A stretch of 64,000 nt of DNA from Pseudovirgaria hyperparasitica (taxonomy: Eukaryota). Below the pieces are notes generated by a model that had not been told where the DNA came from, did not search any database, and saw only the letters and a program-made list of their open reading frames with translations. The DNA lies in NCBI GenBank assembly GCA_010093815.1, contig ML996568.1; one strand, given 5' to 3'. This document shows, in pieces, positions 9,348-36,819 of this stretch. The translations under genes were made by a program, and so were the position numbers. Position 1 is the first letter of the stretch, and each line of letters begins with the position of its first letter.

Positions 9348-9380
9348 ATTATTAGTTAAGGGTAGCCCTTAACTAATAAT
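9348..9380. repeat. Shared palindrome, copy 1 (15-bp arms, 3-nt spacer)
   Basis: ATTATTAGTTAAGGG-TAG-CCCTTAACTAATAAT. Confidence 0.95.
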
Positions 9381-12333
9381 TAGGTAGGTTTTTAGGCGCC
9401 TAATCTTAGTACTTAAGGTCGCGAGCCAGCTTCTAAAGAATCGTATCGCTTATCTTAGAGAGGTTAGATTCCTCCTCATCGGATAGTTCGTTAGGCCTCT
9501 CCTATCTATAGAAGTTCTCTTTAATATTATCTAGGCCCGCGTCGGACTCGAATTTCTTAAAATTAATTAGCCGCTTAGCGGCGCGCGCCTCGTTAAATTC
9601 CTTCTAGAACGACCTATCCCCATAGACTAGCCTTTCCTACCTTACTATTTTCTTAAAGGTCTCCACGAATACCCTCGAGCCCTCCTTAAACCAGGCGTCT
9701 ATCTTAGCTTTAAGTTATTAAGGACTTGCGTTAAGCCACGTAGCTGCCTCTTCTTTTACCTTCTAGCTATTCTATCTTTTATAGCCGACTAATACGTTAC
9801 TAACGGCGTTAAAACTCGGGAGTTAAACTACGGCTAGGAAGGCAAAAGGAATCGCGCTATATTTATTAGAAAATCCCGACGGAGACGTAGGTCCCGGAGT
9901 TAAATTCCTATAAGCTACTACGAGTTATTCCTATATACCCATTTCAGGCACTTCTATTATTATATGATTAGGGCTAATCGCGATATACCATAGAAGCATC
10001 GTACGTCTTCCACCCTTTACGGGACCCTAGGCGCTATATATTATTAGTAGGCTAGAGATACGTACTTTAAGGGACTAGTAGGGGACCGGGACGAAGGGAC
10101 TAAACCGTTTCTTATCGTCCGTATTATAGATCTTATCGTTAATAGCTATAATTATACCGTTTCGATTAACCCCCTCGCGGAGCTTAGCCTTTAACTACTA
10201 TTTATTTAAGAACTTATAGAAGCGGGGAATAATTATAGTATAGTCGTTACTTCGTTCGTCGTCGAGACTAATACTCCCCTAGATTATATTAAACCCGTGT
10301 CTATCGCTAGGATCGAGGATTCGATTAATGGTATTATCGAGATGCTTAAAACCCGTCTTATCGCCCCTATCCTAGGACTTCGCATAGTACGGGTACAAGA
10401 TTAGATAGTAGTTAAGATCGGGCCAAAGAGCGACATAGGTAAGCTAGTAAAGTAGATATTACCTAATAAACTATTAGATATAGGAGTGGTATATAGTTCA
10501 TAGCCAGCCGTAGTTCGATTTCTTATTAAACATGCGCTAGTAGTACTTATATATATTAAATTCATCCCTCGCGAGTTCTAGAATACTCTTATTAAGTATA
10601 GAGGTTGTCTTTTTAAGTAGCTTGAAGAGCCCTTTAATGTTAATACTTCCGGTACGTTTCTACTCGTCGAAGAGTTATCTATCTATCCTACCGTCCTTCT
10701 TCTAAATCATAAATACGATACTAGTAAGGATGGTTTTAATATTAATAACTTACTTTAGGGTCTCTAGGGCCTAGTAATAATAGATACCTAATATCTCTAT
10801 CGGATAAGGTAGCCGCGCGTACTTCGCAAACTAGGTATAGCGGTCCTTATAAACTTTAAGGGCCCCTACATTATCTCTAAACTCATATACTATTTTAAGT
10901 CTCGCTACTAGGTTTAAGTAGGACACGCTAATAAGTATATTATTCTTTCTAGCTACGTCTTAGTAATGCTTATAGTAGACTTTATACGGAATAGCCATGT
11001 TACCTATCTACGCTTTCTAGTGCACTAGTAGGGCCATTCCCTTAATGCTCGTGAAATTCTTCTTTAGTAATATAGCTGCCTTAAAAGTCTTCGTCACTAA
11101 AGGCGCGTATTAACACTTCTTAGGCTCGTCCTCTTCCTCGACCGATACTATTATCTTAGGGTACGAACTAAGAATAACCGGGGATTATTATATAGGCGCC
11201 CCTAGTAATTACTAAGGGCTGGTAGATAAGGCACGTCCGCGAGTGGGTTTTATCGGCGTGGCTATAATAGATACTAAAGAGGTTCTCGCATGGCCTAGTA
11301 AGGGACGTATACTAGTAGTAGTAGGAGAAATACTTACTTTAAACGGATAACTAGCTTCGAAGAGACGATATACTACTAAACTAGAAGGCGTGCTTCGTGG
11401 AGAGGACTTCACTATAGGTGTTACCTACGCTAGTTTTAGCGATGGTAAGGTCTAAGGCGGAGGCGATGCACTTATCTCTTTAATTTATAGGTAGTATTCG
11501 ACGGGCCTATAAACCATTCTACTTATCTATAACTATTGACTAGCGGGGATAATAAGTCCCGTCTTATTATAGAACGTTAGTTTATTTTATTGGCTAGGGT
11601 AGTTCGAGAGTTACTAGAGAGATAGACCGTCCTTATTACTATTGCTAGCTAGAGCGGCATCGATATTAGAGCTCTAAAGATATACCTTAATTCCCCTTCC
11701 CTTCTATCCCTAGCCAATTCGGGACCATAGGGATACGTTTAACTAGTTCCTCGCTCTCACCTATGTCCGCATTCGTAAGAGCGCTACTAGCTTTTCCATA
11801 AAGTTCTATGTTTACTAGAGCTGTCTAAGGGCGGATTAGAGTAACTAGCCATCGTTATTAGGGAGGTCTTTTCGCTAGTTTTATAGGATTATATTTTTAG
11901 CTTTTAGAATACGGGAGTTAGTATCTCTTCCACAACGAATTATCTCGTGGACTTCTTTCGGAATGGAGGAGTTAATCTTTACCTTACTATACCCTATTAC
12001 GGCTCCTACTTCCTAGAAGAGGTTAACTATACTACTTAAGAGCTATTCTATAAGGCTGGTAATATAAAGGAGATTATTAAACGTGTCTAGAATATAGTCC
12101 CATTACTCTTACGGGTCCTAGATAGCGATAATTCGGTTAATAGTAGACTCATTTACTTCTATAGCTTCTATAGCCTATCCGTACGGAGTAGTAGATGGCC
12201 TTAATACTACGATAGCCGTTAATAGCCCTACTTTAGTACTTATGACTCTTAACTAGGACCGTGTCTATCTTATTAGTACTTAATAATCTTATAACTCTTC
12301 ACGGGTAGGCGTTTTCTTTTTCGGCGGGGCTAT
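9352..12333 (-). pseudogene. RIP-inactivated cargo ORF (~990 aa): helical N-terminus, S/P/T-rich linker, CxC...CxxH, C-terminal 2OG-Fe(II) dioxygenase (PhyH-like DSBH) domain
   Basis: One continuous frame whose stops are all explicable as RIP changes. De-RIP reading: LRPDLNYRLISYPYYAK...GFKHLD (HLD codons intact, 10344-10336)...MIQGSISLDDE..DCTIIVPRFH...VPVPC..EVRIS.PLMIHGAQGP (His TAT<CAT at 10038)..GRRTMLPWY (RR 10008-10003). Start and stop are inferred. Confidence 0.8.
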
Positions 12334-12554
12334 TATTATTATCGGTTCTATCGGCGAGTTACGTTCTAAGGAGAGGTAGTTAAGTAAGGCGGAAGTAGAG
12401 GAGGAGGTTTTATTAATTAAGGAGGTATAGAGAGGTATAAGAGGGAAGAGTTATATACTATCTTAAATTCTCTTTTTATGCCTCCTTAAATGCCGGGTAT
12501 ATAGTAATTTTTATAAATGATCCTTACTAACGGCCGTAGGCCCGTATACGTGTC

Positions 12555-12657
12555 GAATCTATAAATGAATATATACTAGGTATATAGAAAATCTATGAAT
12601 GAATATATCTACCGGGTATATAGCGGAATCTATAAATGAATAGATACCGGGTATATT
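12555..12657. repeat. Imperfect ~33-37-bp tandem repeat (x3) between pol and the cargo ORF
   Basis: Units resemble GAATCTATRAATGAATAKAT..CCGGGTATATAG. Confidence 0.8.
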
Positions 12658-15600
12658 CTTATCCTTATAAGACTTCCTATAAGTATCTTTTTCTCCTATA
12701 CCTCCTCTTTCTTTTCTTCCTTATTAGTTTCTAATAGGGCCCGTTCTATAGTAATGAAATGGGCCTTCAATAGATAGGCTTCGATTACACGACCGGCTTC
12801 AATATATGGTAGATAGAATTCGCGTAAACGCCATTATGTCTTCTTTCGAGCATTGCTTACTTTAATAATGAGTTTTATTATTTTATAGTAATGATAGGGT
12901 TTATTATCCTCTTTCGATAATAGAGTTTATTATCCTTTTTCGATAATAGAGTTCATCGTCATGAGACTACTTTTATAAGTATCCCTTCCCTCCTTAAAAA
13001 AAACTTCTATCCCCTAGAAGGAGATATTAATTCTAGGGAAACGTAAATATTCTTCTCTATTAAAGTCTTACAGAGTAGGAATCACTACTTCTACCCGGGT
13101 TCATATGGCGTCGTCGAGGTATTCCGTAAGTTATTTATAATAGTTTTCCTTATTGCTACTCTCCTTATTTTCCTCGGTAATTCTTCTAATTAGTAGTCGC
13201 GAGGGCTTATCGTAACTCTCGTTACTTATATTTCTTATAAAATATTTCTTTAACCTATAGCTAGGAAACGTCCCTCTAAGCATGGCTCTATTAAGCTCCG
13301 CGAGCTTATAAGTATAATTAAACATAGACTAGATTCTATATGGCCCCCTCTAATACTACCTTAGCTTCCGCCCTATATCCTTCTATTACTACGAGTTATA
13401 TAGGAGGATAATCGTATTAACTAGTAACGACTCTTAACGAAGGTAATGGTCGTTATTCTATACCTCTCTCGATTCCTTACGCGTTCGTATCGCGTAGGCA
13501 TAGGCCTCCTTAAGATCCTCGGATCTTCTCTTAAGTTATCTAGCTTAAAGAGTAAGTAAGTCGGACGTTAATCGTACCTCGTCCTAAGGGAGCATTTAGA
13601 GCGACTCGAATTCGACTTTAATAGGTATGATTAGTTTATGGCTGAGCACGAGGTATACGGTACTATACCCTATACTAGCACGTGTCGTTATTCTATCTAC
13701 CTAGACGACCGCATGGAGGTGGCCGGGCTAGTTCTTGAATCCGCCATTAGTTATCTTCGCGAGAGTATTAGCGAGTAGTATAAAACTTCTCTTAATAATT
13801 CTATTTACTTAGGGATTATACGTAGACGTAACCTTCTAATAAATTCTATAGAGTTAGAGGAGCTCCTCTATAGCACCTATATTTTCTCTACTACTATTAT
13901 AGGTGATTTTAGGAATAATTCTATATCTATAGATTACGTTCTTAAAGAGGAACTTTACGATAATTATAGACGTAGCTACCGTACATGCCTCCGCCTTAGT
14001 CTATCCGCTTAGCTATTCTTATATAGATACTACTTTACTATACCCTATAGAAGGTAGTAGCGTCGTTACGTCTAAGTATATTCTTTACTAAAGAATAGGC
14101 GTTATAACGTGGTAGAGCCCTTTATTAAGACCTCCGAGGAGTTTACTTTATTATTAATATTTATTATAGGTTTTCACGTGCTATCGTACGTCTCTATATA
14201 TACCTACCTACTAATACTTATCCTTAATTCTTCCGAGGGTCCCTTTACTACCTCTATAATCTATCTTATTATAAGTAGCGGTAATTATACGCGCCCTAGT
14301 ATTCGGATCCTTAATTACTCGTGTATATTAGCGATACCTATCTCCTCTCTACTAGAGTATTCGGTCACGCACGAGGAACTTTAGGTAGTCGGTTATAAAG
14401 GCCTTATACGCTCGGTCGGTTAGGTCGGTTAGCCTCTTAAGTATAGTAAGATATTTTATAATCCTCTACCATTTATCGCTATATTCATCTATTAAGGGAG
14501 ACTTAATAGTAGTATAGTTAAGTATCCCTATTATATAATCTCTTCCGCTAACGGGCTTAATTAATGACGTCTCTAGTACGTCTATATATAGAGCTATATC
14601 TATAAACTTATCTAGGTTAAAGGTAGGGATGTCTGGTAGTTCTTCTCCTTCGTATATCCGTAAGATACTATCGGCGACTACGTTACGCTTTCTAGGTACG
14701 TGCCTAACTATAAAGTTCTATAGCTAAATCTACGCGAGCTACCTAGTAACGAGCGCCCCTAGTAAGTTAGTTATAGTACGGTTAATTTAAGCGACTAGAG
14801 TATTCGTATCTATTTCTATAATAAAGTACATACTATAGAGATATTACCAGAACTTCTATAACGCGTGGAGGAGGGCTTGGTACTCTAGCTTCACGGTATC
14901 GTAGTTTCTCTTAGCTTTTAACTATATTCCTCTATTATACCGCGATGGCTAATATTTACGATTCTCGTTCTCCTATATTAATATAGCTCCCTACCTAACG
15001 TTACTAGAGTCTACTACTAGGATTATATCTCCCGCACCTATCCCGTATTATAATGTTATTAGTGCGAGAGTAGTAGTTAGAGCTATCTTTAGCGCGTCTA
15101 TCGAGGTCTACTCCTTAGCTATCTACTACTAGGCCGATTTATTCTTTAATAGTATAAATAGCGGCGATGCGATAATAGCGTACCCGGGGATCTATATCCG
15201 GAAATATATATAAACGCTAAGGAAGGCTCGCACATTCGTCGTGTTTTTATAGGGTTTCTAGTCCCTAATAGTAGTAACCTTTTTATTACTCGGTCGCCTC
15301 CCTTTAATGTCGTAGACGTATCCTATAACGTTAGCGGCTTTAATATACTACTAAGTCTTCTTACTACTTAGGGCGTATCTAGCGCGCTCTATATCCGCGA
15401 GAACCTTATCCATGTTAATTAAATATTCTAGAATATATCTATAAATTCTAGGTAGGGCCTCCTTAGAGTTATATTTCGTTATAGGTCCTTTAATGCCTAA
15501 GTTATCTAGGAATAGTAGAGCCCTCTCCGGGATATATTCTTATATAATAGTTAATATAATTCTAACGAACTAAGCTACTAAATTAGTGGCCCCTTAAGGT

Positions 15601-16646
15601 AATATTATCCCGTGTAGTAATCCTAGAGGCGTTATAAACCCCGTTAAGTCTTAGTAATACTCTACTAATAGAATCTAATCGTATCCTAAGAAGAAGTCAG
15701 TAAACGTTAAGACGGCTATTCCCGTGAAGTGCTCCGAGAACTCTTTATATAAGAGCGGCGTGGCCGCATTACGAATGGTAACTTGGTTGATTTCTATCGC
15801 CGAATTGATTAACCTATAATCTCGTTCCTTATTGGCTTCCTTCTTCTTTTCCACGAGAAAATAGACGTTTTAATAAGAACTACTATAGGGCTCGAGCCTT
15901 CCGCTATTAAGACGCTCTTTTAGAATTATAAATACCTTCCTATAAAGGGCTCTAGGAATATTAAAGTTCTTAGTCTACTATACCTTATGTTCTACCGTTC
16001 GGATCTCCTACGGAGATGCCACCTCTTTATTAAATTTACTAAGGTATAAGAATTTCTATGCTAGTACTTCCTCGCGATATAATAAGATTATATATAGTAA
16101 CTTAAGTTCCGTAGGACGTAGCTCTATTCTAATCTTTAGCTAACTTATACGTAGAGACGTTAGACGTGTTCCTAGTAGGATAGTTACCCTTTAAGGCTCT
16201 ATTAGCCTATTAAACGTATTAAGGCCTAGATAGACAGCTAGAAGAAGTACCTACCATGCGATTACTCGTTCACGCTAGTCTAGATACCCTAATAGATTTC
16301 TAGGAACCTTTCGGTGGGCTTCGGAGTCATCCACAGGGTGTACTTTAACTCCCTTTCTTTTATATATGGTAGCTATACTAAATCCCTTTAATACCCCGGA
16401 TGAATACCGTCTTTAGAGGCCGGTAGAGCCTACTATAAGCCGTTCTATTATCGTGCCTTATTTATATACGAAGGTAGCGTACCTTACCGCCATAACTAGA
16501 GCAGCTAAGTTATCTTTTCTCGATAACCAAGTAACATTTTTAGGCCGGATTTTCTCGGAAAGTAACTCTATATAACTTATTTCTATATCCGTATAAAAAT
16601 ATAGCCTATCCCCTTCGTTAGTAGGTTTACTAGACCCTATTTAGTG

Positions 16647-16685
16647 CGGATTATTAGTTAAGGGTAGCCCTTAACTAATAATCCG
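16647..16685. repeat. Shared palindrome, copy 2 (18-bp arms), inside pol between protease and RT
   Basis: CGGATTATTAGTTAAGGG-TAG-CCCTTAACTAATAATCCG. Reads RIISQGLPLTDDP in the pol frame after de-RIP. Confidence 0.95.
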
Positions 16686-19368
16686 GCTTAACTCCGGCTT
16701 CCGGCGATATACTCCGCTATATAGTTAGTCTCTAGCCATAGAGTTACCCTCCTTCTCTAAGACTAGAATATACTTATCTAGACTAGTTTTGAAGGTTACA
16801 CGTTCTTATCTATATATAGAGTAGACTATTAAGAGTACTTACCCGGAGACTAACCTCTATACTATAAGTAAGGCCTATCTAGTATATAGCTCCCCTAGAA
16901 TAAGGTCATGATTAAGTTTACTATATACGAATATTAAAGTGGCCGTAACGATCCGACCTATATAGATAGGGTATTACTATACTATTCCTACGAATAGAGT
17001 ACTATACTAAGTAGCGCTAACTAAACTTAAGTTCTTTATATATAGTAGAAGCGAAGATATCGCTAGCCCGAGACGCCTTATAGCATCTAGTCGAATACTA
17101 TTTATCTATACGCCACTATTAAATAGTACTATACTAGTCGCCCTTTTAGGACTAACTTCCACGGGGTATCTTAGACACTCGGCTACTAGCCTTACTATCC
17201 CTTTCTTAAGCTAATTAATATCTCGTTATGTAATGGCCGTCCCCGTGGTATAGAGGGGTACTAATACGTTAAGTTTATTTATCTCGGGAGCCATAGTATG
17301 GTTATTTCTTCCTTTCTTCTCGGCTCTCTCTTCTTAAGCCTTACGGACCTCTCTAGCTATAAAGTTAGGGGCGCCCTTCTTAAACACCGCACGATATAAG
17401 TTACTATTAAGGCTTAATAGTTCGCTAATAGTAATGTTTATAGTTATCCCTAGAACGCGCACTAGCCATGCTTCGCTAGCTTCTATACTTAGCCGCTATC
17501 CTTCGCGTAGATAGTTATTAAGCTTAACGCCTTAGATACGTGCCTTTTAACTAGGATTTAGACTATCCCCTTTATCTATCTTATCCTCCGGCGCCGTTAG
17601 CTCTTATTTAGACGTTCTCTAGTTACTACTCTTCTTGCCGTCCTTCTATTCCTTAATAATTCTTATATACTACCCTTTACGCATTCTACGGAGACGGGTA
17701 ATCTTTCTTTCCTTAGTACGATTAGGTGTACTCTTCGTGATCCCCCTTCTAGATATTACGAGTATAGCGGGCTCTTCTAGGGCTATCTCCTTACGGATAT
17801 ATCTATTACTAGCCACGTTAAAGCGTTCGTGGAATTCTATATATCTATCTTTCTTACTCTCGGACGACGTAACTTCTTCTTCTAAATTGCTATCCGCTAA
17901 GGCCTAGTAGGGACCCTTTATAGATTTTATACTAATACTATATACTAGTACTCCCCATGAAGCGTTAATGTTTACTATAGACGTGGAAACCTTTACTCCT
18001 CCTCCGTACTAGCTTAGGCCATTTTAAACCATTACTATATAGTTCTAGATAGCTTATAGAGTAGCTTATAGCCCTACTAAGGGGGGTAGTAATGGGATTT
18101 CTTCTCCGTTCGCCCCGAAACGCCCTTAGAACACTCGTACCCCATTAATATTTAGTAATCCGTCTCTAATATATTCTACCATCTCCGGATATCTATATAT
18201 TAGGTAATCTCCTTCGTACGTGATATACACGATTAGTCTTCGAGGCCTATCCTAGGCTATAACGCCTTCTTAGGAGTCTCGGGTAGAGACGTATTCTCTA
18301 TTCTATATATAATTCTATAGATAAACTTATATTAGTTCTATAGGCATGCCTTATACTTAGGGATGTACTAAAAGATTTAGCCTTCGCGTCTACTAGTTAA
18401 TAATAGCCGAAAGTAGCTTAGATTCGTACTTCTTAAGGGATAGGAATAAGAGATTAGAGGTAAAGTAGGACTTCATCTTAATTAACGTGAGGTCTAGTTT
18501 ACTAAATCTCTCTACTATCTCGTTAAACTTATCCGATTCTAGCGCGACGTGTACTACGACTAGAGAGGGGTAGTTAAATTTATTAGTTCTTCTTTCTTCA
18601 TGTAACTACTCTTCTAAGCCGGTCTTCTTACTCCCTATCTTTGATTTATAGTATATGGCTATGGCTAGCTCTTATGCGGCTAAGTACTTATTAATACGAG
18701 CTAGTTCCTTAAGTACTCTAGCCTTTTATAATATGAAGCCATAGATAATTACCTAGTCGTAACTATATACTTCTATCATGAGTTAATATTTCTCTATAGC
18801 CCGAGCCTTAAGACTATTAGGCAGCCCTTCTAGGAAGAGCTCTATTCGCGAATACGAGCTTAGGCTTCCTTTAGCCGTAAGTTTCTCCATAATAATATAA
18901 TACTAGGAGTAGTATATAGGGAGAGAGTAGGATAGGTCTACTTTAACTATTTCCACGTATTTTCGGACAAAGTAGATGGTACCTTCCTCGAGGGTAGAGT
19001 TAAATAGAGAGAATTCCTTTAATAATTCTTCACGTAGCATAGCCTACTACTATTTCTAAAACCTACTCATTCCTTTAATAGTAGGACGGAGATAGTCCTC
19101 GTAGTATAATAGTAGAGAGGTTATTTTCTTATTAGGCGGAACTTCGTAGTTTATATATATATTCTTATACTTCCGAAGGAAGGCTATAATGTTTATTCCT
19201 TTAAAGCGCTCGGGGGCTAGGGTAGATAGAGATACTATCCTTCCTTATCGCGTAAATGCTATAAAGAAGTTAAGCATCTCTCTACGAGTTACTAGGTCGT
19301 TGTTTTAAGCTCCTATCGCACTATTACTAGTAGTAGATATACTAGTAGAGACGCTAGGGGTAAGGTTA

Positions 19369-19393
19369 TTAGTTAAGGGATTACCTTAACTAA
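19369..19393. repeat. Shared palindrome, copy 3 (degenerate, 10-bp arms), in the 5' part of gag
   Basis: TTAGTTAAGG-GATTA-CCTTAACTAA. Reads SQGNPLTDD in the gag frame after de-RIP. Confidence 0.8.
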
Positions 19394-19897
19394 AGGTTAG
19401 CCCAATGCGTCTACCTATAACACCTATTATCCCTTCTCTATGTTAACTAATCCCTTTATAAGGTGAACTATTACTATCGTCTTTATTAATATAAGGTTCA
19501 TGGTATCCTACTTATGTTATTATCTTCGTGTAAGGCGTTCCTAAAGTAGTATACTCATGTGGCCGTGTTTATAAATAACAGCTATGGCAGCACTAAACAG
19601 GTTATATTTATCGTTTTTAAACTCTTCTTTACTACTTCATCTGGCCCTATTTTATATCCTATTCCCCTAAGACATTTTCGAGTCGCGCTATCACCCGTGT
19701 TAGTATACGCATGCTTTTTACGGCTACTTTTAAGAGGCTAGCCCCTAGCGACTCCGGACTCCCTGTTTTCTAGACTCGTGGCTTCGATCTAGTAAGTCTA
19801 GACTACCTTATTAGGCACGCTATATACTTCCCCTAAGCTAGTTTCGGAGTCCTAATCTCCCCCTATAAGTTTATAGTCCGGGTACGACCTCTAAAAT

Positions 19898-20269
19898 TAT
19901 AGTAAGCTATCGCTACGTATGTTCCTTTTATAAATAGCTATATTCCTAGTATAGTAGTCGCGACGAACTTATAAGTATCTCTCCTAGGTATTATAAGTTC
20001 TCTTTAAACGTACGACTTCTTATTAGTTCTCTTTTATAATAGGACGGGTCTATACAATACTCTCAATCAATTCTTTAATAGCTAAGCCTAATAATCAATA
20101 CCTATAGAGGCCTATAAACGTAAGAAAAGGTCGAATAGTCGAATATTAGTGATGGGGGAAGCGCGCCGAGTAGAATGACCAAGGAAAACGCCCTCCTTAA
20201 ATATACAATGAAGCCATGTGATCGAGCTAGGGACATATACATGTAGGGCTATAGGAGCGGCCTTCCATA
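19898..20269 (-). repeat. 5' LTR of the Ylt1-like element
   Basis: 372-bp match to 8830-9201. Confidence 0.95.
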
Positions 20270-20527
20270 ATAGTACCTAGGCTTATCTAATTATATTACG
20301 TAATACGCTAGGCCTAATTAGATAATCTTATCTATATAAGAATTTAGGATAGATAAAATCTAGTTTATTAGAAAAATACTTATATAAATCTTAGATTAGT
20401 AAATATTAGTAAATATCTAAGATAAAGCGTAGAGAACGACTAAGGTCTTATAAGACTTAGAATAGAGATATAGAAATAGATAATAATCTAGACTACTAAG
20501 AGTAGCTTCCTAAAGGGAGGGGATAAT

Positions 20528-20755
20528 TATTAGAACTTAGTCTTAGATATAATCTAATCCGTACGTATCTTAGCTAATAGAGTTAGAAGATAGCGTAAAG
20601 GGCGGTAAATAGTTACGTACTAGATAGATCGGCGTCCCTTTATATATATACTCTTAGATTTCTACTAAAAGGGTTAGGTAGTAATTTATTCTATAATAGA
20701 ATACACCCTATTATTCTATCTAACTATACTACTATCTAATAACCCTATTCTTATA
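20528..20755 (+). repeat. 228-bp LTR (3' LTR of the outer Gypsy)
   Basis: Preceded by a PPT. Same family as 29358-29585 (inverted) and 30780-31007. Confidence 0.9.
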
Positions 20756-21344
20756 TATAGAGTAAGAAATCTATAGAGATTATCTAGTCTATTAAGATTA
20801 TCTTCTTTAATTATTATCTTAAGTATAAGACTAATACTTCTTATATACCTAAGAATCTCTATAAGGCCTTAATAAAGTCTATCTATAATAGTAAGTAGTA
20901 TAGAGCTAGTATATAAGTATTTTTTAATACTACTAGTAATATTAGAATAATAAAATACTAGAGATAAGCTAAGTACTCTTATAATCTTAATTATATAGAT
21001 AGTCTAAAGCTTAACGACGGCTTATATAACTATATAGTTAAGATAATAAGGCTAAATCTAAGTCTATTAAAGACTTATCTTCTTTAGAGTCTTAGAAATC
21101 TATAGATAGAACGTAAGGTTTCTAAACTAAGTAAGGCTAGTGGTAGTTACCTAGCTATACTATAAATCTATAACTAGGCTTAAGTAGTTAACTATAGCCC
21201 TAATCAACTACTTTAGAGTAATAACCTAAGTACTAATAATTAGCTAGATAAAGCTAAGAAGATACTTAGAAATTATAACTAGAGGTATAAGAGAGTTATT
21301 ACTTATTACTATAACTAAACTAGTAATAAATCTTTATTAGTATT

Positions 21345-21546
21345 TGTAATGGATATAACTAAGGTATTGCTACAATGGTAACTAAGATATATTATAATTT
21401 AACTTAGAGAGAATAGGGATAAGCCGTATGGTTATAGCTTTAAGTATAGTCTTAAGCGAGGTTACGTGATACCCCTATACTAGTCTCTATCCGTCCCGGC
21501 TCCGTTATATAATACTAGAGATAAGGTAAAGCCGAAGTCTATAATA
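21345..21546 (-). repeat. 3' LTR (202 bp)
   Basis: TGTAATGG...ATAA[C>T]A, matches 28894-29095. Confidence 0.95.
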
Positions 21547-26800: not shown

Positions 26801-27560
26801 GGTTCCCGCTAGTATAGACTTAATATAGATATAGTAGTCGGTGTTCCCTCTATAGGGAGGTAGCGCCGACGCCTTTTCCTTATTAAAGAGATCGTGGTAG
26901 ACGTATAGCATTAACGGGAGCGGGCGCCTATCCTCCATAAGCTTAGTCGTATCCTAGTTAGGTACTAGAGGTAACTAGGGGAGTATAAGTTATAGGAGGC
27001 GGGTAACGTCGCGGATACTAGTAGCGACTACTCGCCCACGGCGGTAAGCCGTCTCTAGACCCCTAGGAATACGGCCCTTCTTAGTAAGGACCCGGATGCT
27101 TATTAGGCGCCTATGGGTATTAATATCCCGGGCTATAAGGCCGTGGGCGCGGTAAAGCGTGATTTCGTCTACGCGTATATCGATAACGGCGCCGGCCTAG
27201 TAGAGCCATAGGCTCCCGAGGATAAGGTCCCGGTCTAGCCTAGGTACTATATAGGCGGTAAGGCGTTATCGCTACCCCGCGATATTATACTAGATAGTAA
27301 TAACTTCCGTAATCTCCGGTTCTAACGCTCCGTTAGCGGCGAGAGCCACTTAATAACGTAGGACCGAGATACGCGACTTAGCTACGTCCGCCGTAAGGGC
27401 CGGGCTAACTACCGTAAAATACTCGCACTCTATATCTACTAAGGCGTCTATATACTTCCTATCCTAGAGGAATAGCGATATAACGGGTGGGGGTCTATCT
27501 ATAACCTAAGCGGGCGCGCTATCCTCTAGGTCGGAGCTGTTATCCGGGTTACCTATAGCT
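23830..27560 (-). pseudogene. RIP-degraded pol (PR-RT-RH-IN-chromodomain)
   Basis: De-RIP motifs: ALVDTGCEC (~27445-27420), AYLDDI (~26337-26320), FWSQISMDFMTDLP (~24995-24955), chromodomain VLVKWKG (~24016-23996). Confidence 0.9.
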
Positions 27561-27599
27561 TCGTTCCTTACTAAATATAGTAACGTCCCCTAACCCGGG

Positions 27600-28830
27600 C
27601 TTTAGTAGAGGGCTATACTTCCCCCGCCTCGGAGTTAGAATTAGTATTATTCTAAGCTAGGGCCGTAACCTTAAGCGCTCATATATTAATAGCGTTTAGA
27701 TAGCCCCGGTATTAGTAGCTAGCCTAGCTATACCGGGTATATACGCCCGCCGTACGGCGCTCCTAGAATAAGTCCTTCGGGATCCACGAAGGAGTCTCTT
27801 TCTTCTTAACCCTATCTCTACCCTTTACTATTAGAGACGCGGCTCGCTTCTTACCCTTTATCTTAACGGCCTTAATAGCGACCGCCGACATCGTCGTATT
27901 ACCGTTCTTATCCTTACTAGGCCTATTTTAAGGTGCGGCGCTTTACCTAGTACGGAGCCGGAATAACTCTATATCTATACCGATATCCCGAAGGCGGCCT
28001 ATAGCGGCCTCGTACTAGTCCGGAAGGCCCCGGTTTAGAGCTACCGCCTAGGTCTTCTAGTTAAGGCCGTCCCGGAGCTATATAAGCTTCTAGTCATCGG
28101 CCTAGTATATTCCCCTAGCCTTCTAGAGGGCGGTATAGAACCATACGAAGTACTCTATGAACGGCTTCTTTACCTTTTATATAATTATATTTAACCGCTA
28201 GAGGGCCCGCTCTTTAGTATATATGTCTCCGAACTAGAATTCAAGGTAGTCTAAGAACGCGTGCGGGTTCTAGTCGCCGTTTAGCCCCCTAGTAGAATAC
28301 ACGGCGCTAACCCCCCTCTATACCTTAGGCGCTAGGTTAGCCTAAATAAGAGCTATTTAGTCCCTATGGGTGCCGATAAAGTTAGCGTCCCGGGTAATCT
28401 TATACCGTATTATAATAGACTATATACGGAAGAGGGCCTTAGACCCGTTATACGGGTCGCTAAGGGGGAGGGGCTTCCTCTTAGGAGCCCGGTCGAGTAT
28501 AATATATAGCGTAGGAAGTAGTAAGGCGGGAGCGCGTGTAGGAAAGGCTAGTTCGGGCCTATATAGACGTTAGGGCGCTACTAGGGAGAAGTCGGGCTAG
28601 GGTAGAGACGAGTCGCTATAAGTTAAGGTAGCGGGAGTATAGCTATATAACTCGACCGTAAGGAGGCGGGCGTTAATACGTTATAGAGCCGTATAGACGC
28701 TATATTCGATATTAGATATCCGAGACTCGCTTACCGCTTAGGCGGCCGTAATAGACTCGTGGATGGACCGTATCTCGTCCCGAAAGCTAAGGAAGGAGTT
28801 AGAGAGTTACCGTATTAGATTAGAGTCTTA
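27600..28830 (-). pseudogene. RIP-degraded gag
   Basis: CTRCGQAGHQYRGC (CX2CX4HX4C) at ~27742-27701. Lies between the 5' LTR and pol. Confidence 0.8.
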
Positions 28831-28893
28831 CGGGTTAAGACTATCTTATACTATAAGACCACGTATAGAAAGAGATAATTAAAGTTAAATTAA

Positions 28894-29095
28894 TATAATA
28901 GATATAACTAAGGTGTTACTATAATGGTAACTAAGATATATTATAATTTAACTTAGAGAGAATAGGGATAAGCCGTATGGTTATAGCTTTAAGTATAGTC
29001 TTAAGCGAGGTCACGTGATACCCCTATACTAGTCTCTATCCGTCCCGGCTCCGTTATATGATACTAGAGACAAGGCAAAGCCGAAGTCCATAATA
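28894..29095 (-). repeat. 5' LTR (202 bp)
   Basis: Matches 21345-21546. Confidence 0.95.
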
Positions 29096-29357
29096 GTATT
29101 CGCCTAGAAATATTAATTAGAGTAGCTAATTAACTATAGTAAACTTACTTTAATAGACGCTACCTATAGAACTAATAAGCTAAGATAGTATCTATATATC
29201 TAGATAATTTAGGACTTCTATAGTTCTTATCTCCTGTATATATATATACTATCTATATTAGAGGAGAGTAGAATACTTACCGCTATAATAAAGATACTAA
29301 GGTATTAGTATTATAAGATTCGACCTTATAGTAATAGCTAGTACCTATAGTACTTCC

Positions 29358-29585
29358 TATAAGAATAGGGTTATTAGATAGTAGTATAGTTAGATAGAAT
29401 AATAGGGTATATTCTATTATAGAATAAATTACTACTAAACCCTTTTAGTAGAAATCTAAGAGTATATATATAAAGGGACGCCGATCTATCTAGTACGTAA
29501 CTATTTACCGCCCTTTACGCTACCTTCTAACCCTATTAGCTAAGGTACGTGCGGATTAGATCATGCCTAAGACTAAGTTCTAACA
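29358..29585 (-). mobile_element. Solo LTR (228 bp), inverted orientation
   Basis: Reverse complement of 20528-20755. Flanked by TSD CTTCC (29353-29357 and 29586-29590). Confidence 0.95.
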
Positions 29586-30779
29586 CTTCCTTATGGATGA
29601 CTCGGCGGCTAAGTAGTATATAATTAATAAAGCTTTTCCTAGTATTAAGAAGGGTATAATAAAGCTAATATAGTTTCTTTATATGGTATACTTCTAGTAT
29701 ATAATTAAGAAAAAGGTAAAGAATATAGATATATAGAGATTATTAAAATAGGTAATATACTAGTATATATAAATTAGCTATAACGAGTTACTTAATAAGA
29801 TAATAAATATTACTATAATATATATACGTCTACGAGATCTAAAGTATCTAAATTCTTTAGAGATACTAGCGATTAAGAAGAGCTAGTAAGTAGTAGTAAT
29901 AAGGGCGAGACTTATAGATTTATAGAGAGATTCTAAGCGTTAATTTAAAGTTAAGTAAGCTATAAAAAGTAGTAATAGGAATTCGTCTATACGTTCTACT
30001 ACTAAGATATCTTCTAGTACTAAAAGGTAACTCTCTAGCCTAAAAAAGCCTAGTATAAAGTGTGGAAAATAGGGACGTCTATCTAAAATATCTTTAATAG
30101 TATCTATAATACTTATTTATAACTCTATACTACTAATAACGACTAATATACGGCCTTAAGATACTTAAAATAGCTAGAATCTATAAGTAGAAGGTACTAG
30201 TCGTTCGAAAAAGCTACTATTTAACTTACCTAAGTATATATAGATATATTAGACGCTAAAGAAGTATCTATAGACGATATTTATATGGTAATACTTACCT
30301 ATATTACTTTAGATTATGACTATAAATATTATTAAAGCCTAGTACTCTATAATTAAAGTACGTACCCTAGTAATAAAGAAGATAATAGTAAAGTTCTCTA
30401 TTACTAGCCTTATTCTAGCGCTTAATTAGTAAGTTAAAAGTTAGAATATAAGGAGTAGAAAACGAGTAACTAAGTTCCGTACTAAAATACTTAGCTTAAG
30501 TTATTAATATCTAGGCTTAGAAGACTTTCCTCTACTATTTTAGAAGCTTCTAGATATAGAGATTTAATTCGCTTAGCGTGAAGTTAATAATAGTATAGTA
30601 TTAAAGCCGTAGAGAGACTCTATTAAGTATAACTATCTTTTTTTTAGATAGTATATCCTACCCTATTACTATCTCTAGTACTACTATATACTATTTAGAG
30701 ATATACTTAATAGAGATATACTCTATAGCTTTAGTCTTAAGTTCGAAGAAGCCGGGTATAAGGTATATAAGATACTTAG

Positions 30780-31007
30780 TGTTAGGACTTAGCCTTAGGT
30801 AGGACCCGACCTACACGTACCTTAGCTAACAGGGTTAGGAGGTGACGTGAAGGGCGGTAAACAGTCACGTGCTAGATAGATCGGCGTCCCTTTGTATATA
30901 TACTCTCGGATTCCTACCGAAAGGGTTCGGTAGTAATTCGTTCTATGATAGAATACACCCTATTGTTCCATCTAACTACACTACTATCCAATAACCCTAT
31001 TCTTACA
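30780..31007 (+). mobile_element. Solo LTR (228 bp)
   Basis: TGTTAG...CTTACA flanked by TSD CTTAG (30775-30779 and 31008-31012). Confidence 0.95.
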
Positions 31008-32011
31008 CTTAGTTAAAGAGATAAGGATAGTAATATTAAGGAGATAGCTATAAGCTTAGTATAACGAGAGACTCGCGATATACTCTAAGTACGTAAGATA
31101 ATTAATAAACTAAGGGCTATCTAGTATAATCTACTTAAAGATTTATATTAGTTTAAGCCTAATTAGAGTAATAGAATAAGGCTAGGGTAGATAAATAGTC
31201 TATCTACGGCGATAGATAAACTTACTTAGATATCTACTCGAGATCTCCTTAATAAGGATAAGTTTAATAGAGTATTAGATAAGATTTAAGGTACTAGTAC
31301 CCTTATACCTAGTAATAGTAATTCTAAGGTTAAGGACTTAATACTATAGGTTAAGTATATAAAGGAAGCTAATTATATTATTAAGGAAGGCCCTAAAGTA
31401 ATTACTTATATATAACTTCCTAAAGTTAATAGTAATCTCTTAATTAAGGCTACTTAGAATACCCTTATTAATAAACTACCTCCCCTAGTATTTAACTATA
31501 ATCTAGAATTATACTAATTTTAGAATAGAATATAGAACCTAGATAAAGGTAATAGTAATAAGGTTAGTACTAAGGATACTTATAATAGTAATAGCGACGG
31601 CGATATTAGTAATAATATTATAATTACTAGTAGTAATAAATTATATAAGTAGATAGACTTAGTACTTAATACTACGGATAATAATAGTATAGATAAATTA
31701 AGAAGTTATAATATATTAAGGATATAAATAAATAAAGATAATAAAGATAGATAAGTATAGTATATACTTAATACTTAAAAACTTCTTACACTCCAACGGA
31801 CTAAACTAGTCAATTCGGGGTAAAACAGCGATTTACATATATTAAACGATAGAGTACACCGAGTATAATAACCTCCGATACACGTGTATACGTATAGTAT
31901 ATAATACGCGACGATACCGACGTGTAGAGATACTATATATATATACTCGAAGACTCTTTAATAACACGAGTATAGACTATATCTAATAAACGCTAATACG
32001 CCGACCCCCTT

Positions 32012-32042
32012 TTATTAGTTAAGGGCTACCCTTAACTAATAA
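32012..32042. repeat. Shared palindrome, copy 4 (14-bp arms), immediately 5' of LINE ORF1
   Basis: TTATTAGTTAAGGG-CTA-CCCTTAACTAATAA. Confidence 0.95.
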
Positions 32043-32044
32043 CT

Positions 32045-33470
32045 ATAGCGGCCTTAGGCATCGTAATACCCCGGTATACACCGGATATACCCCTACTAGT
32101 ATAGTAGAAACGGCTATATAGCGACATTAATATAGATAGCTAGACACCTATCTAAAATATAGGAACTAACCAAGGGTACGAAGCGCTATAGATAACCTAG
32201 ACTAAGGGGACCCCGAGAGGGGAGACCCTCCTAGATAAAATTAAATACTAGGTAATATATATAGAGAGGGACGCCGAGAAGAGAAAGAAGACCCTCCTTT
32301 ATATATTCCGGGACCTTATCCGGAATCTAAGAGGAATCACGAAGGAAGAAAGGAAGTCGCTATAAGAGGAACCTAGTAGTAGACTTAACTAAATGGAAGC
32401 TAGTCTACGGAGAATCTAGGAAGAGCTATTCTAAGGTAAGCGCCCTAATATATAGGCTTAGATTATAGTAACACCCGGAGCTACCGTACTAAGAACTACT
32501 AGGACCATAGATAGAGTATATAGTATACGTGTTGTAATCTAGGATAAGAACATGCTAGCGTAGGTCTAATAGGTATCCCTAAAGGAAATTATAAATAAGA
32601 TTAATAAATAGAAAGGAATATGGTTAAGCGTCGTGGCTACTAAAGTTACGCTAGGTAGGGTAGTACTTACTACTATAATAAATACTACGTAGTAAAACAT
32701 CTCGCGAGATCTAAACGCGATAGATAGTATCTTCCCTAGCGTGTCTATTAGGGTAGCTATATACCCGATTATAGTATACGTAGTACCCGTGTAGGGATAG
32801 ACTATTAGAGCGGAGGATATTACGCGTATAGAATAATCTAACACGCGAAAATACCTAGGGATTAAGATCGTAAAAGCGTGGTAGAAGAACCTATAGGCGA
32901 TTAAGACGACGGCGAAAAAATACTCTACTATAATTATAGAGCTCTAAGACCCCGCCCTTATATAATATATTATATAGAAGGGATTCCTAATAGAAGGAGA
33001 GCTCCTTATAGCCGAGCTATAGGATAGAACATAGATAATAATATAGTGCTTTAACTATTAAGGGTATAGACACACTATATAAAGGTACTTATAGAAGACT
33101 AAGTGCGGATAGTACCGTGGGGACCACGCTACCTAGGAGTACCCTTATAAACCATAAGGAGACGGACCAAGAAATAGAGACATAGTATAGTGTTTAAACT
33201 ACGATGGGAAATACCCGTCGTGGTCGTTAACGTGTATAAAATATAAATAGGTTATAGAATACATTCGCACGATAAAAGCGAGAGACACGAGATAGTTATA
33301 GAATATAATACCTACCACAAGCCCTTCCTTTATAACACCCCTAACCTCCCCTCCGGAAGGTAGTTAGGCGGGATAGTAGACTATTCTAAAGACGATAGAA
33401 CGACTAAAAGGTATAGTTAAAGCCGCTACCGCGCGAGGATAGTCGCGCCTCTAAGGAATAAGTATATAGG
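32045..33470 (+). pseudogene. LINE ORF1 (gag-like, three zinc knuckles), RIP-degraded
   Basis: De-RIP motifs: QCFNCQGYGH (33044-), KCGWCRGDHATQEC and QCSNCDGKHPSWSSTC (to ~33236). Start ATA<ATG at 32045 is inferred and the end is approximate. Confidence 0.85.
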
Positions 33471-33499
33471 TATATATACTCTCTAGTACCTAATAAGGG

Positions 33500-36400
33500 A
33501 CTAGAATATACTCTAAATTATATAGGTAAATATATAATATAAAAGAGAGAACTAGGTAACGCTCCTCGAAGAGACCGGGGCTATAATACTCGCTATCTAG
33601 GAACCCTATAAACACTACTAGACGAGTAAACCAACCACACACCCCGGATACTATACTATACACCCTCTAGGACTAGAAAGACGAGTCCTCTTCCACATTT
33701 ATAGGTTAATACGACTCTTATTATAGTTATATACCGAGCGCGATAACCTTAGGATAACACTACACCTATAAATAGATATAGGCCCCCTATATATATAATA
33801 TATATAACTAATAACGTATACTTATACTAGACGAGATACTCGAGGGTACTACGGAACTAGGATAATATATCCTCCTAGAAGACTTTAACCTCTACTACTA
33901 ATAGTAGGGAGGCCTAGCCATAGTTAGGGAAGAACTTAGAGTAAGGGAACTACGCACCCGCTACTACGACTTTCTATACCTACTTATACCTATAGAATAA
34001 GTTATATAGAAAAAATATAAATAGGACGAAGACGGGTCCATGCTTAACCTTACCTTTACTATAGAGTATATTAGTTACCGGATCCAATACTACCGCCTAG
34101 GCTAGGTATAGACGGATTCCGACCACGAATACATGGAAACCATAATAAATATATATACCCCGAATAAATAATAGGGACGATAGATATAGAAGGACACTAA
34201 CTAGGAAAAGTACCTAAAGGACCTAGAATCGGCGATTCTAGATCCCTCTATAGTTAATATATCTAACGATCTAGCTATAGACCAGGCCGTATAGATACTC
34301 CTATAAATATACTAGAATATAAGAAATAAACACGTACTATACCGAATATACCGGCCCCTAGAAGTAAAGGGGATTCCTTAAGTATAGGAAAGTAGATAAG
34401 ACGTCTAAAGGCTATATAGACGCGTATACTATACGAGAACACCCGAGTCGTAGAAAGAATAGAAGGAAGTAATATAATAACGCGATAAAGTCCTCCGTAA
34501 TAAAAGGCGTAAATAGTAGCGTATAATTACTAGTTAATAGATATGATACGTAATAGAGCTATAGTACATGGCGAAATAGGCTAAGGGCGTAGACACTCCG
34601 ACACCCCCGCTACTTATACCTCCCCTAATATATTAGAGGAGAATATACTCCACGGGCCTTAAGAAAACTAAGGCCCTATAGGAGGCCATGTTCCCTCTCC
34701 CGGAACTAGTAGACCTATTAGATATTCACGGCGCCGAATATCTACACGCGGTAGATATCCCTAAAGAAGTTACGGAGGAGGATATACTTAATATTATTAA
34801 GATACTTCTAAATGATAAAGTACCCGGACTAGATAGAATTCTAAATTAATACCTAAAAAGTACTATAAAAGCAACTCTACTACTTATTACTTATATATTC
34901 TAAGTATACATCACGTAGGGGTACCACCCCTAGAGCTTCCGAGTCGCCTATACTATTATACTCCCGAAACTAGAAAAGAGCCCTAACTCCCTAAAGGGAT
35001 AGAGACTAATCGCCCTTCTCTTCTACCTAGATAAGATACTAGAGGCTATAATAGTAAAGAAGATAAGTACCGCGGTATAGGAATATAATCTCCTCCCTCC
35101 GAACTAGAAGGTAAAGATAGATAGCTCCCTAATAATAGCTATCTAATATATTATTAAAGTCGTCTAGGCCGCATAGAAATAGGGACGGGTAGTATCGCTC
35201 CTCTCCCTCGATATAGCCGGAGCATTTAATAAGGTAAACTATATAAGACTTATTTATAACCTCCGGATAAGACGAATACTAGAATAGATTATACGCTTTA
35301 TATAGTTATTCCTCATAGGAAGAATAACTTAGATATATATCCCTAGGTACTAGAGTAAATATAAAGAGATGGTATACGGCATCCCATAAGGGAGTACTAT
35401 CTCTCCGATTCTATTCCTCTTCTTTATAGTAGACCTTCTTTAAGAAATAAAGTATATAGAGGTAGTCGGATACGCTAATAATATATACCTTCTAGCTATT
35501 AATAATAATACTAACCGAACGTATAGACGACTAGAATAGGACTACAAGAGGTACCTCTAGTAGGTAAAACGCCATAGAGTAAAGTTCGCCCTAGAGAAAT
35601 ACTAGCTTATACACTTTATTAATTATTAAGAGAAATAGGTAATTAGGGAAGGCGAACGACGCCCCCGAATCGACGTATTTAATAAACTACTAGTATAAAG
35701 TATACGCGCGCTCGGAGTTATACTAGATAGCAAGCTTAAATAGGGACTATAAGTAGTATATACCGTCTCTAGGGCCCTCTAGATAGAAGCCGCTATATAA
35801 TAGATTATAGCCTCCACGTAGGGAACTACCTAGGATAAGGCACGCTAGCTATATATATCTATAGTACGACCCGCCTTTATATACGGACATAAGTACTAGT
35901 ATACGGCCCTTATATAGACTAGATAAATAAAGCTCGAATCTATATAGAACCGTATACTCCGTCTTATATTAGGCGTATATAAAGCTACTAATATGGTACT
36001 ACTACGACGCGAGATAGACGTTATAAGTATATATAACTTCTACTAGATATAGAGGGTAGTATACTTTACTAAATAATAAGTATAGAAATATATAGAAAAC
36101 GTAGAATATACTTTCGCCGCGCTATATATATAAATTAGTATATATTACCGCGCACTCCTATATATAGGCCGGAATTAAATACGGTATAGGTGCTTAATAG
36201 AAGCTAACTCTAGCTAAGTAGTATAAGAAGTCCGAGATAACCTAGACGCTCTTCTAGACTAGTAGAGTCTTTAAGAACTCGTAAAAAATATACGGTCGTA
36301 GACTTAAGATAAGTAGAAAGAGACACTCTATATCTACTAGACCTTCTAATAGAATAGGTACCTAGAGTAGATTTAAGGGCTATAGAAGGAACTAAGTAAA

Positions 36401-36814
36401 TAGATATATAAAGGGCTAACGAAAGCCTAAGTATCTATACTTATCTAAGCCCGAACGGGCGCTATAGAACTTCTATACTACATCTATAAGAGAGGCGTTC
36501 CTAATACCTCCCTATAGTATAAGGTATATAGCCGGAGAGGTATAATACGCTACTATCTAGCTATATACTCTAACCTCTATATATAATAGTAATAGCTTAT
36601 CTATATTATAAAGACTTTAGATATCGTATAATAGCTTAATAAGTACCCTAAGAACATCTCCTAATAGATACTTATATATCTACTACTCCTCTAGTACTAG
36701 TAGACCCAGAAATATATACCGGAAGAGACCCGGTATACGCCGGTAGTAACCCGATATATACTAGAAGAACCCCGGGAGAACCCCGATTATTAGTTAAGGG
36801 TAGCCCTTAACTAA
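33500..36814 (+). pseudogene. LINE ORF2 (APE endonuclease, RT, C-terminal zinc finger), RIP-degraded
   Basis: De-RIP motifs: LAIQEP (33589), LLGDFNLHH (33872), DSDH (~34115), KAPGPDGIP (34817), WRPIALL, LDIAGAFDKV, GIPQGSAISP, GYADD (35468), KFAPEKYQLIHF. A small indel lies between 33600 and 33870. Confidence 0.92.
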
Positions 36815-36819
36815 TAATC
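36785..36819. repeat. Shared palindrome, copy 5 (16-bp arms), at the 3' end of LINE ORF2
   Basis: GATTATTAGTTAAGGG-TAG-CCCTTAACTAATAATC. Confidence 0.95.

Follow-up and report, generated by a model that had tools for sequence, protein, structure and literature searches.

Why does the same short palindrome recur in two retroelements that belong to unrelated classes? The question is raised by a stretch of 64,000 nucleotides from contig ML996568.1 of Pseudovirgaria hyperparasitica (assembly GCA_010093815.1), called the window in what follows. The palindrome has the form TTAGTTAAGGG-N3-CCCTTAACTAA and occurs five times in these 64,000 bases, against 0 occurrences expected. Three copies lie in a Ty3/gypsy-type element with long terminal repeats (LTRs), and two lie in a long interspersed nuclear element (LINE). 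The answer that we put forward, tentatively and well short of conviction, is a discrete hairpin module that was built into both families before they amplified and that acts, if at all, in their transcripts. The five copies are listed here, with the unpaired spacer at the centre of each.

9348..9380, palindrome copy 1: 15-bp arms, TAG on the plus strand (CUA in the sense RNA); predicted fold -24.3 kcal/mol, z -5.4
16647..16685, palindrome copy 2: 18-bp arms, TAG on the plus strand; in the pol frame, between a protease-like motif and the reverse transcriptase (RT)
19366..19396, palindrome copy 3, a variant: 10-bp arms, 5-nt centre
32012..32042, palindrome copy 4: 14-bp arms, CTA on the plus strand (CUA in the LINE sense RNA); 5' untranslated region (UTR) of the LINE
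36785..36819, palindrome copy 5: 16-bp arms, TAG on the plus strand (UAG in the LINE sense RNA); 3' UTR of the LINE

The window was searched with the pattern TTAGTTAAGGGNNNCCCTTAACTAA, with up to 3 mismatches allowed, and 100 dinucleotide-preserving shuffles served as the null. Matches were found at 9352, 16654, 32015 and 36790 (copies 1, 2, 4 and 5; 0 mismatches) and at 19369 (copy 3; 1 mismatch), and the raw letters agree. None of the 100 shuffles contained any match. An initial annotation, made from the letters of the window, had named the same five sites; all five were recovered, and nothing else in the 64,000 bases matched. Its statement that the palindrome is missing from the two chromoviruses, the Mutator-like element (MULE) and the gene-rich half also stands at this mismatch limit: nothing was found in 1-8800, in 20300-31700 (the MULE with its nested chromovirus) or in the gene-rich half. 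Orphan half-arms were not found either, as a search of the window for either 11-mer arm with up to 2 mismatches returned only the five paired sites, at 0-1 mismatch. A looser form of the motif, TTAGTTAAGG-N3-5-CCTTAACTAA, covers centres of 3-5 nt. Apart from these palindromes and loose AT-rich low-complexity pairs, the window contains no long perfect hairpins.

Four copies have in common a 31-nt core, TTATTAGTTAAGGG-N3-CCCTTAACTAATAA, and their arms are perfect, at 15 bp (9348-9362/9366-9380), 18 bp (16647-16664/16668-16685), 14 bp (32012-32025/32029-32042) and 16 bp (36785-36800/36804-36819); the arms of 14-18 bp around a 3-nt spacer that had been reported for them are thus borne out. On the plus strand the spacer is TAG at 9352, 16654 and 36790 and CTA at 32015, which gives three CUA and one UAG in the sense RNA of the hosts. 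When folded as RNA, the four perfect copies reach -22.4 to -26.5 kcal/mol (z -5.2 to -6.4), and none of 200 shuffles folds as well as any of them.

The copy at 19369, which had been described as off-pattern, is so: it has one mismatch, 10-bp arms and an altered centre of 5 nt, GATTA. On the sense strand, four transversions turn GCTA into TAAT, and the outer arms also differ. These transversions are notable because 2,365 of the 2,479 places that differ between copies in a public sequencing run (X1, see below) are transitions. Judged by its letters, this copy is a variant and not a simple decay product. The outer-arm letters are GG in 19369, AG in 32015 and GA in the other copies; these differences suggest an ancestral GGTTATTAG.

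How far does the repeated unit extend? In an alignment of 200-nt contexts, identity was confined to the palindrome. The 150-nt flanks, compared with RIP-tolerant scoring (RIP, repeat-induced point mutation), gave a best z of 1.7 among 45 pairs. We also compared the whole LTR element with the whole LINE in purine/pyrimidine space and in both orientations; runs of at least 30 were the palindromes only (33-36), and the next-longest runs common to the two elements were 24-28. The absence of extended flank homology noted in the initial annotation therefore holds, with a sole exception of about 10 nt, and a larger recombined segment, which it had named as a competing explanation, does not account for the sharing, as the palindromes are the only long runs that the elements have in common. 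The exception was seen in the first 30 nt beyond the arms when these were anchored: TCCGG(G)CT(A/T)A, about 10 nt, continues 4 of the 10 arms. The arms may once have been about 24 nt. Because the core measures 31 nt and the extension of about 10 nt continues 4 of the 10 arms, the unit is put at no less than 31 nt and no more than about 51 nt. One of the 45 anchored flank pairs reached p 0.002 (left of 9352 versus right of 16654), and comparisons of left with right within the same copy gave p 0.02-0.39. The bases beside the core are themselves palindromic (GA...TC, GGA...TCC, CGGA...TCCG). We considered an extended palindrome or larger shared segment, for which the outer arms and CCGG tracts are suggestive by eye, and rejected it on the negative flank statistics. 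No direct repeat that could be a target-site duplication (TSD) flanks any of the five copies.

The CCGG tracts are an observation in their own right. Clusters lie within 120 nt of three palindromes, at 16683-16701 (three), 32071-32081 (two) and 36719-36772 (four), often in short repeats resembling CCGG(CG)TATA. Near the sites there are 10 CCGG in 1,200 nt; across the two elements the density is 2.4-3.7 per kb.

The first carrier, on the minus strand, is a Ty3/gypsy-type LTR element of 11.4 kb with the following parts.

8830..9207, minus strand: 3' LTR of the Ty3/gypsy-type element; boundaries approximate (repeat 300 nt, 95%)
19898..20275, minus strand: 5' LTR of the same element; boundaries approximate
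13209..16370, minus strand: pol of the LTR element (RT, RNase H and integrase region); tblastn E 1e-142; many stops of the RIP type

The pol product is homologous to Ty3/gypsy-type polyproteins over 16370-13209 (tblastn), and the RNase H domains fall at residues 1733-1878. Copy 1 lies about 140 nt inside the internal region, beside the polypurine tract and the 3' LTR, and copy 3 lies about 500 nt downstream of the 5' LTR, directly upstream of the likely gag start. On the minus strand, the roughly 3.6 kb between the end of pol homology and the 3' palindrome and LTR (9380-13200) form a long unexplained 3' region, in which no protein family was found in any frame at E 0.01.

Copy 2 is inside the pol frame, at residues ~1207-1219 of the minus frame counted from 20300, and sits in a linker to which none of the best 150 of 21,200 HMMER matches aligns. 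The palindrome corresponds to query residues 203-219, and these 150 matches all start at residue 266 or later; a word-based protein search of this region gave six matches, none of which aligns over the residues encoded by the palindrome. Projected onto the query, the N-terminal ends of the eleven nearest predicted proteins fall at residues ~183-268, which would place a boundary between open reading frames (ORFs) of the relatives near copy 2. Whichever unit length is taken (33, 39 or 51), it is a multiple of 3. The initial annotation had argued that an in-frame TAA in pol implies a single ancestral sequence with CAA. That argument fails: assignments that undo RIP and preserve the palindrome can open all three frames (27, 27 and 9 of 81), and we rejected it as non-diagnostic.

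The second carrier, a LINE on the plus strand, measures 5,282 bp (31774-37055) and combines zinc knuckles with an endonuclease-like motif and an RT domain.

31774..37055, plus strand: LINE, full length, RIP-damaged; zinc-knuckle ORF1, endonuclease/RT ORF2 and a (TTA)n tail
31756..31773, plus strand: left target-site duplication of the LINE, TATAGTATATACTTA(A/G)TA, 18 nt, one transition mismatch
37056..37073, plus strand: right target-site duplication of the LINE, partner of 31756..31773
34991..35659, plus strand: RT domain of the LINE (RVT_1, E 3.4e-12), residues 1098-1320 of the frame from 31700

The ends of the LINE are set by the 18-nt TSD (31756-31773 and 37056-37073, one transition mismatch), and homology of a LINE contig in another run (X3) starts at 31777, in agreement with the 5' end at 31774. 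Copies 4 and 5 bracket ORF1 and ORF2 in opposite orientation, one in the 5' UTR and one in the 3' UTR, as had been claimed. Their 31-nt cores are exact reverse complements, spacer included (copy 5 core, 36787-36817). From the 5' end of the LINE to the core of copy 4 there are 238 nt, and from the core of copy 5 to the 3' end there are again 238 (+/-2) nt, the uncertainty arising from a TA by which the LINE tail and the target duplication overlap. A long-range RNA duplex of 31 bp between copies 4 and 5 is calculated at -52.9 kcal/mol, versus -24.6 and -25.0 kcal/mol for the two hairpins. The outer arms of the palindrome, TTATTA and TAATAA, echo the unit of the LINE tail (37037-37055) and its complement.

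Contigs of three public runs from two samples (X1, X2 and X3) were aligned to 16640-36639, a stretch that leaves out the copies at 9352 and 36790 and the left side of the copy at 16654. Both families are highly repeated, with 38,820 X1 contigs at a likeness of at least 80%. X3 comes from the other sample, under the same organism label. The X3 LINE has C/G where the window has T/A at 768 sites and the reverse at 35; because of this imbalance, we take it as a little-RIPed form. Two gapless X3 contigs, 15 (31777-32041) and 16 (32012-32373), overlap by 30 letters exactly on the palindrome. If the assembly used 31-letter words, this overlap resembles the break of a de Bruijn unitig at a word with two contexts, and this reading fits the presence of the reverse-complement 3' copy in X3 as well. 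In X2, three contigs on the palindrome at 16647 have a loose end that equals the 24 letters preceding the copy at 9352 (9321-9344). The motif is thus not confined to this locus, a possibility that the initial annotation had allowed for, since the X3 LINE carries the 5' site and the three X2 contigs carry the 9352 junction. Alignments that leave out or skip 19366-19396 or 32012-32043 were absent among those listed (12 of 26 and 15 of 19), which is no evidence of absence. The X3 contigs give no cover over 20642-29312, and nothing is concluded from this gap.

One nearly RIP-free LINE contig of X3 measures 4,052 nt (window 32344-36653), and an X3 LINE contig has a loose end after 36581 that equals the de-RIPed reading of the window sequence. 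An intact LINE copy, possibly active or expressed, may exist in the species.

Scans with TYAGTYAAGGGNNNCCCTTRACTRA gave five loci in metagenomes (L001-L005), one in prokaryote genomes (L006, in a metagenome-assembled genome of Nomurabacteria) and 0 in viral contigs. L002-L006 have the de-RIPed motif TCAGTCAAGGG-TTA-CCCTTGACTGA as a hairpin, and L001 is a different variant with the spacer TAA. L003-L006 are also alike in their flanks; L002 lies at a contig end and continues differently. These matches are most likely an unrelated coincidence and, as chance hairpins without fungal sequence, they are therefore uninformative on fungi.

Can the perfection of the arms inside ruined elements be taken as a sign of selection? 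The left 37 kb of the window consist of RIP-degraded repeats, with CpA and TpG at 0.04-0.26 of expectation; in both carriers the values are 0.11-0.26, with TpA/ApT at 1.7. The ratio (CpA+TpG)/(ApC+GpT) is 0.05-0.29 in the half occupied by transposable elements (TEs) versus 1.23 in the gene half, and TpA/ApT is 1.7-1.95 versus 0.71; the right 26 kb are normal gene DNA. The TE half has the hallmarks of RIP repeats, and the X1 copies differ by transitions at 2,365 places and by transversions at 114. All five copies of the palindrome are free of CpA and TpG and are therefore immune to further RIP change. For this reason, their perfection needs no selection.

In the reading that we put forward, which concerns two high-copy families of a RIP-affected Dothideomycete, the unit would have come as one discrete piece into the master copy of either family, ahead of their amplification, and would have been tolerated or used because it forms a stable stem-loop in transcripts. 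In the LINE, the 5' and 3' copies could pair alternatively into the 31-bp panhandle, which would bring the RNA ends together. In the LTR element, the stem-loop might be a handle for zinc-knuckle nucleic-acid chaperones, for packaging or dimerisation; zinc knuckles are present in ORF1 of the LINE, and the Gag of such LTR elements usually has them. No copy of the palindrome lies inside any recognisable protein domain. On the evidence, a built-in module present throughout each family is more likely than a palindrome that repeatedly landed in dead TE copies, and the first arrival of the module may have been as a tiny mobile insertion, which is compatible with the built-in reading.

Several observations weigh against this reading. 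Recurrence in other copies was observed directly at only two of the five sites, 32015 and 9352; the family-wide claim draws on contigs, not on reads, and of the two X3 contigs no single one runs across the palindrome with 31 letters to either side. The mirrored positions in the LINE were noticed post hoc, with a chance estimated at about 1 in 100, and the terminal 238-nt segments have no homology in either orientation (p 0.44, 0.55). Among 35-mers of the two elements, 40-52% are equally free of CpA and TpG, and the identity of the copies is equally expected from a recent common origin together with RIP immunity. Compensatory change in the arms was found in 0 of 15 pairs, and the divergent copy at 19369 mostly loses pairs; selection on structure is therefore not demonstrated. 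The two chromoviruses of the window, which are also retroelements, lack the palindrome, and we know of no packaging, export or recoding signal that resembles a perfect duplex of 14-18 bp. Of the cis-element across TE classes that had been proposed for this locus, the presence of one sequence in two unrelated retroelement classes stands, and neither arm covariation nor a unique ancestral sequence is supported.

A different explanation, nearly as likely as the built-in module, is a functionless selfish micro-palindrome of 31-51 bp that leaves no TSD, happened to insert at three places in the LTR element's master lineage and at two in the LINE's, and was afterwards carried along passively as these were copied. 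It can be likened to the symmetric, TSD-less introner-like sequences or to an extreme MITE (miniature inverted-repeat transposable element) reduced to its terminal inverted repeats (TIRs). Homology that ends abruptly at the edges, one unit in unrelated contexts, both orientations relative to the host transcript (three CUA and one UAG), sites that all tolerate insertion and a unit length at 16654 that is a multiple of 3 speak for it, and the parts of PMC8469720 available to us describe a fungal precedent for palindromic units that integrate seamlessly without a TSD. Against it, the other ~20 kb of RIP-degraded TE DNA and the 26 kb of genes hold 0 copies, and under uniform landing all five would fall in 16.7 kb of the 36 kb of AT-rich TE DNA with p ~0.02. 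To account for five hits in two master lineages, one needs targeting or else a very high activity, and the latter predicts copies elsewhere; the window holds no partner element with matching ends, those of the MULE being unrelated, and the mirror placement in the LINE stays unexplained. A further, improbable case is that a small abundant hairpin RNA, from the host or from an element, was captured into retroelement cDNAs by template switching of the RT. Template jumping by LINE and retroviral RTs is established. Under that argument only RT-dependent elements would carry the palindrome, and without a TSD, in keeping with its restriction to two RT-using families, the seamless junctions and the several positions within one element; the two chromoviruses nevertheless lack it, an internal insertion requires two switches, and no gene for a source RNA was found in the window (0 in an Rfam search at gathering thresholds, 0 in a tRNA scan).

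The perfect dyad symmetry would also suit a DNA-level site for a dimeric protein (a transcription factor, recombinase or nuclease), for example as part of an internal promoter of the LINE. LINE internal promoters lie in the 5' UTR, where copy 4 is located; a function independent of orientation would fit both spacer orientations, and CCGG is enriched near the palindromes. Half-sites of 14-18 bp are, however, far longer than the usual factor sites, and tyrosine recombinases have cores of 6-8 nt, which do not fit a 3-nt spacer. With no recombinase gene in either element at E 0.01 and no joints at the palindromes among the 15 of 19 listed, we give this explanation little chance. Less credible still is a spliceosomal introner-like element that was reverse-spliced into retroelement RNAs and fixed by their RT. 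It shares the seamless insertion and symmetric structure that the available parts of PMC8469720 report for fungal introner-like elements, the right arm has branch-point words resembling CTAAC/CTAAT, and at 16654 a 56-nt stretch GTTAAG...CACTAAATAG can be read on the sense strand. Yet the common unit reaches 7-10 nt upstream of the sole GT, GTTAAG is a poor donor, and outside the stem a donor is missing from four of the five copies; a length of 56 nt, not being a multiple of 3, would break the frame in which protease and RT lie together, and an efficiently spliced intron would vanish from retroelement copies. Finally, we give almost no credence to chance, RIP convergence or an assembly artefact. 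RIP does lower complexity, and the 7-9 TpA of the palindrome could each hide a CpA or TpG, but the 0 of 100 matching shuffles effectively refute a chance origin, the at most 81 palindrome-preserving ancestors that map to the present 39-mer are far too few for convergence, and the sequence is present in contigs of three runs and two samples, which argues against an artefact.

Some further readings were tried and rejected. A terminal inverted repeat of the LINE is ruled out by the non-homology of its 238-nt ends in both orientations. Apparent piggyBac-like (TTAA/CCC...GGG), Tc1-like (TA) and 'inside-out' elements with a 3-bp TSD carry no weight, as any two symmetric palindromes bracket apparent TIRs; for the LINE pair, the 3-bp TSD would consist of CTA and TAG, which is not a direct repeat. 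A hammerhead ribozyme core, with CUGAUGA masked as CTAATAA, was discarded because the motif would lie inside a perfect helix, and Rfam gave 0 matches.

Is such a palindrome known from elsewhere? A literature search by sequence, topic and species, which covered PMC5445492 apart from the lists of Conserved Hairpin Sites (CHS) in its supplement, returned no description of it. To judge from the parts of that paper available to us, the closest thing described is the CHS of fungal GalEa Copia elements. There, the CHS is placed in the non-coding leader of fungal LTR retrotransposons; its function is given as unknown and is presumed to be in replication, and an 'extended' form, 33-62 bp long, is unexpectedly conserved from one family to another in the same species (PMC5445492, available parts). 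The likeness is that of a short hairpin-forming sequence of similar size that is common to distinct families in one species. According to the same parts, however, the GalEa CHS begins with the final base of the 5' LTR and takes the place of the primer binding site, whereas the nearest copy here is about 500 nt away, the other copies are located in pol and close to the 3' LTR, and the host belongs to the Ty3/gypsy type. The CHS is further described there as a pair of 9-nt boxes, CTGATCAGT or CTAATTAGT plus the complement, that have a conserved A/A mismatch and a loop of 12-41 nt; in contrast, the arms TTATTAGTTAAGGG and CCCTTAACTAATAA are perfect, enclose a 3-nt loop and do not contain these boxes. 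Sharing with a LINE is not described in the available parts of PMC5445492.

Introner-like elements and sister (stw)introns are alike in that they are near-palindromic inverted-repeat units that multiply in transcribed sequence, seamlessly and without a TSD (PMC8469720, available parts). The sister introns described in those parts measure 93-207 nt, have imperfect arms of 45-55 nt (~73% identity), lie in genes and are true U2 introns, whose donor, branch point and acceptor are all on the coding strand. The unit here is 31-51 nt and perfect, four of the five copies have no usable splice sites, and within the window it occurs in the two retroelements only. Seamless integration without a TSD was found here, whereas a donor, branch point and acceptor at the unit ends were not.

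Other comparisons concern the LINE. In the eel elements UnaL2 and UnaSINE1, a 3' stem-loop of a 'stringent' LINE is reportedly recognised by the RT, and the partner short interspersed nuclear element is said to have it too. The likeness lies in a stem-loop of a LINE 3' UTR that is also found in an unrelated retroelement. The stringent-LINE stem-loop is located at the very 3' end and is shared together with the tail, whereas here it lies 238 nt upstream of the (TTA)n tail; unlike that case, a second, mirrored copy occupies the 5' UTR, and the element that also carries the hairpin is an autonomous LTR element with nothing else in common with the LINE. Cyclisation sequences at the 5' and 3' ends of RNA viruses and retroviral dimer-initiation hairpins are known for viruses, not for LINEs. 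They resemble the LINE pair in having complementary sequences near both RNA ends and a switch between a local hairpin and a long-range or intermolecular duplex; the LINE panhandle is, unlike these, a thermodynamic possibility from calculated folds without covariation. The dimer-initiation site of retroviruses is mentioned in the available parts of PMC5445492.

MITEs nested in TEs are likewise short, multi-copy inverted-repeat units inside larger elements. Known MITEs measure about 50 bp and more, and the palindrome is smaller. It also differs in having no TSD and no internal sequence beyond 3 nt; inverted repeats are present, and the arms end variably, at 14, 15, 16 and 18 nt. As for an autonomous partner, the MULE ends in the window (20525-20755, 29358-29588, 30778-31005) are unrelated to the palindrome. 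The 3' hairpin of Helitrons, elements with a 5' TC end in which it stands 10-12 nt upstream of a CTRR 3' end, was considered as well: CTAG and CTAA words follow some copies, but these are ubiquitous in RIP-degraded DNA, and no homologous body was found in the 150-nt flanks on either side of the palindromes. Stringent-LINE stem-loops, nested MITEs and viral cyclisation or dimerisation signals agree with the palindrome in a single aspect each, and of the testable features that define the families compared, only the missing TSD of the introner-like class was found. The nearest known kinds are conserved retroelement hairpins and palindromic units without a TSD; the sharing across two retroelement classes is genuine.

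Other features of the window lie outside the two carriers. A MULE-like pair is formed by a terminal repeat of ~230 bp (20525-20755, 29358-29588, 30778-31005) around a nested chromovirus, whose LTRs (21347-21546 and 28896-29095) are 7.5 kb apart; the third copy of the repeat makes a second, short pair, 1.2 kb apart. Contigs from other loci join across these MULE-like repeats, with skips of 233, 7,756 and 8,789 nt. In the gene half, a laccase/multicopper oxidase (51914-53443) is 100% identical to a Pseudovirgaria hyperparasitica protein, and its next relatives are at most 68% identical. Because the nearest laccase of another species stands at 68%, no close sequenced relative of this genome is represented in the protein collection.

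What would the palindrome mean for these elements? It is distinctly doubtful, if conceivable, that retroelement classes exchange and depend on a portable hairpin module, by way of a LINE panhandle and of dimerisation or packaging of the LTR element, or that the palindrome is a micro-palindrome parasite without a TSD. The panhandle would circularise the LINE RNA and help the RT to reach the 5' end; the parasite would live in retroelement RNAs and be spread by their reverse transcriptases. Since RIP ruins most copies of fungal retroelements, hardly anything is known of the RNA and DNA signals that act in cis in them. In this case RIP works as a filter, through which a stretch that it cannot mutate stands out as common to element classes. 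A functional palindrome would offer one shared handle for packaging, cyclisation or host recognition; a selfish one that spreads and leaves no TSD would bear on how symmetric introner-like sequences multiply in fungi. In either case, it serves as a simple marker with which to trace the past of this genome's two largest repeat families.

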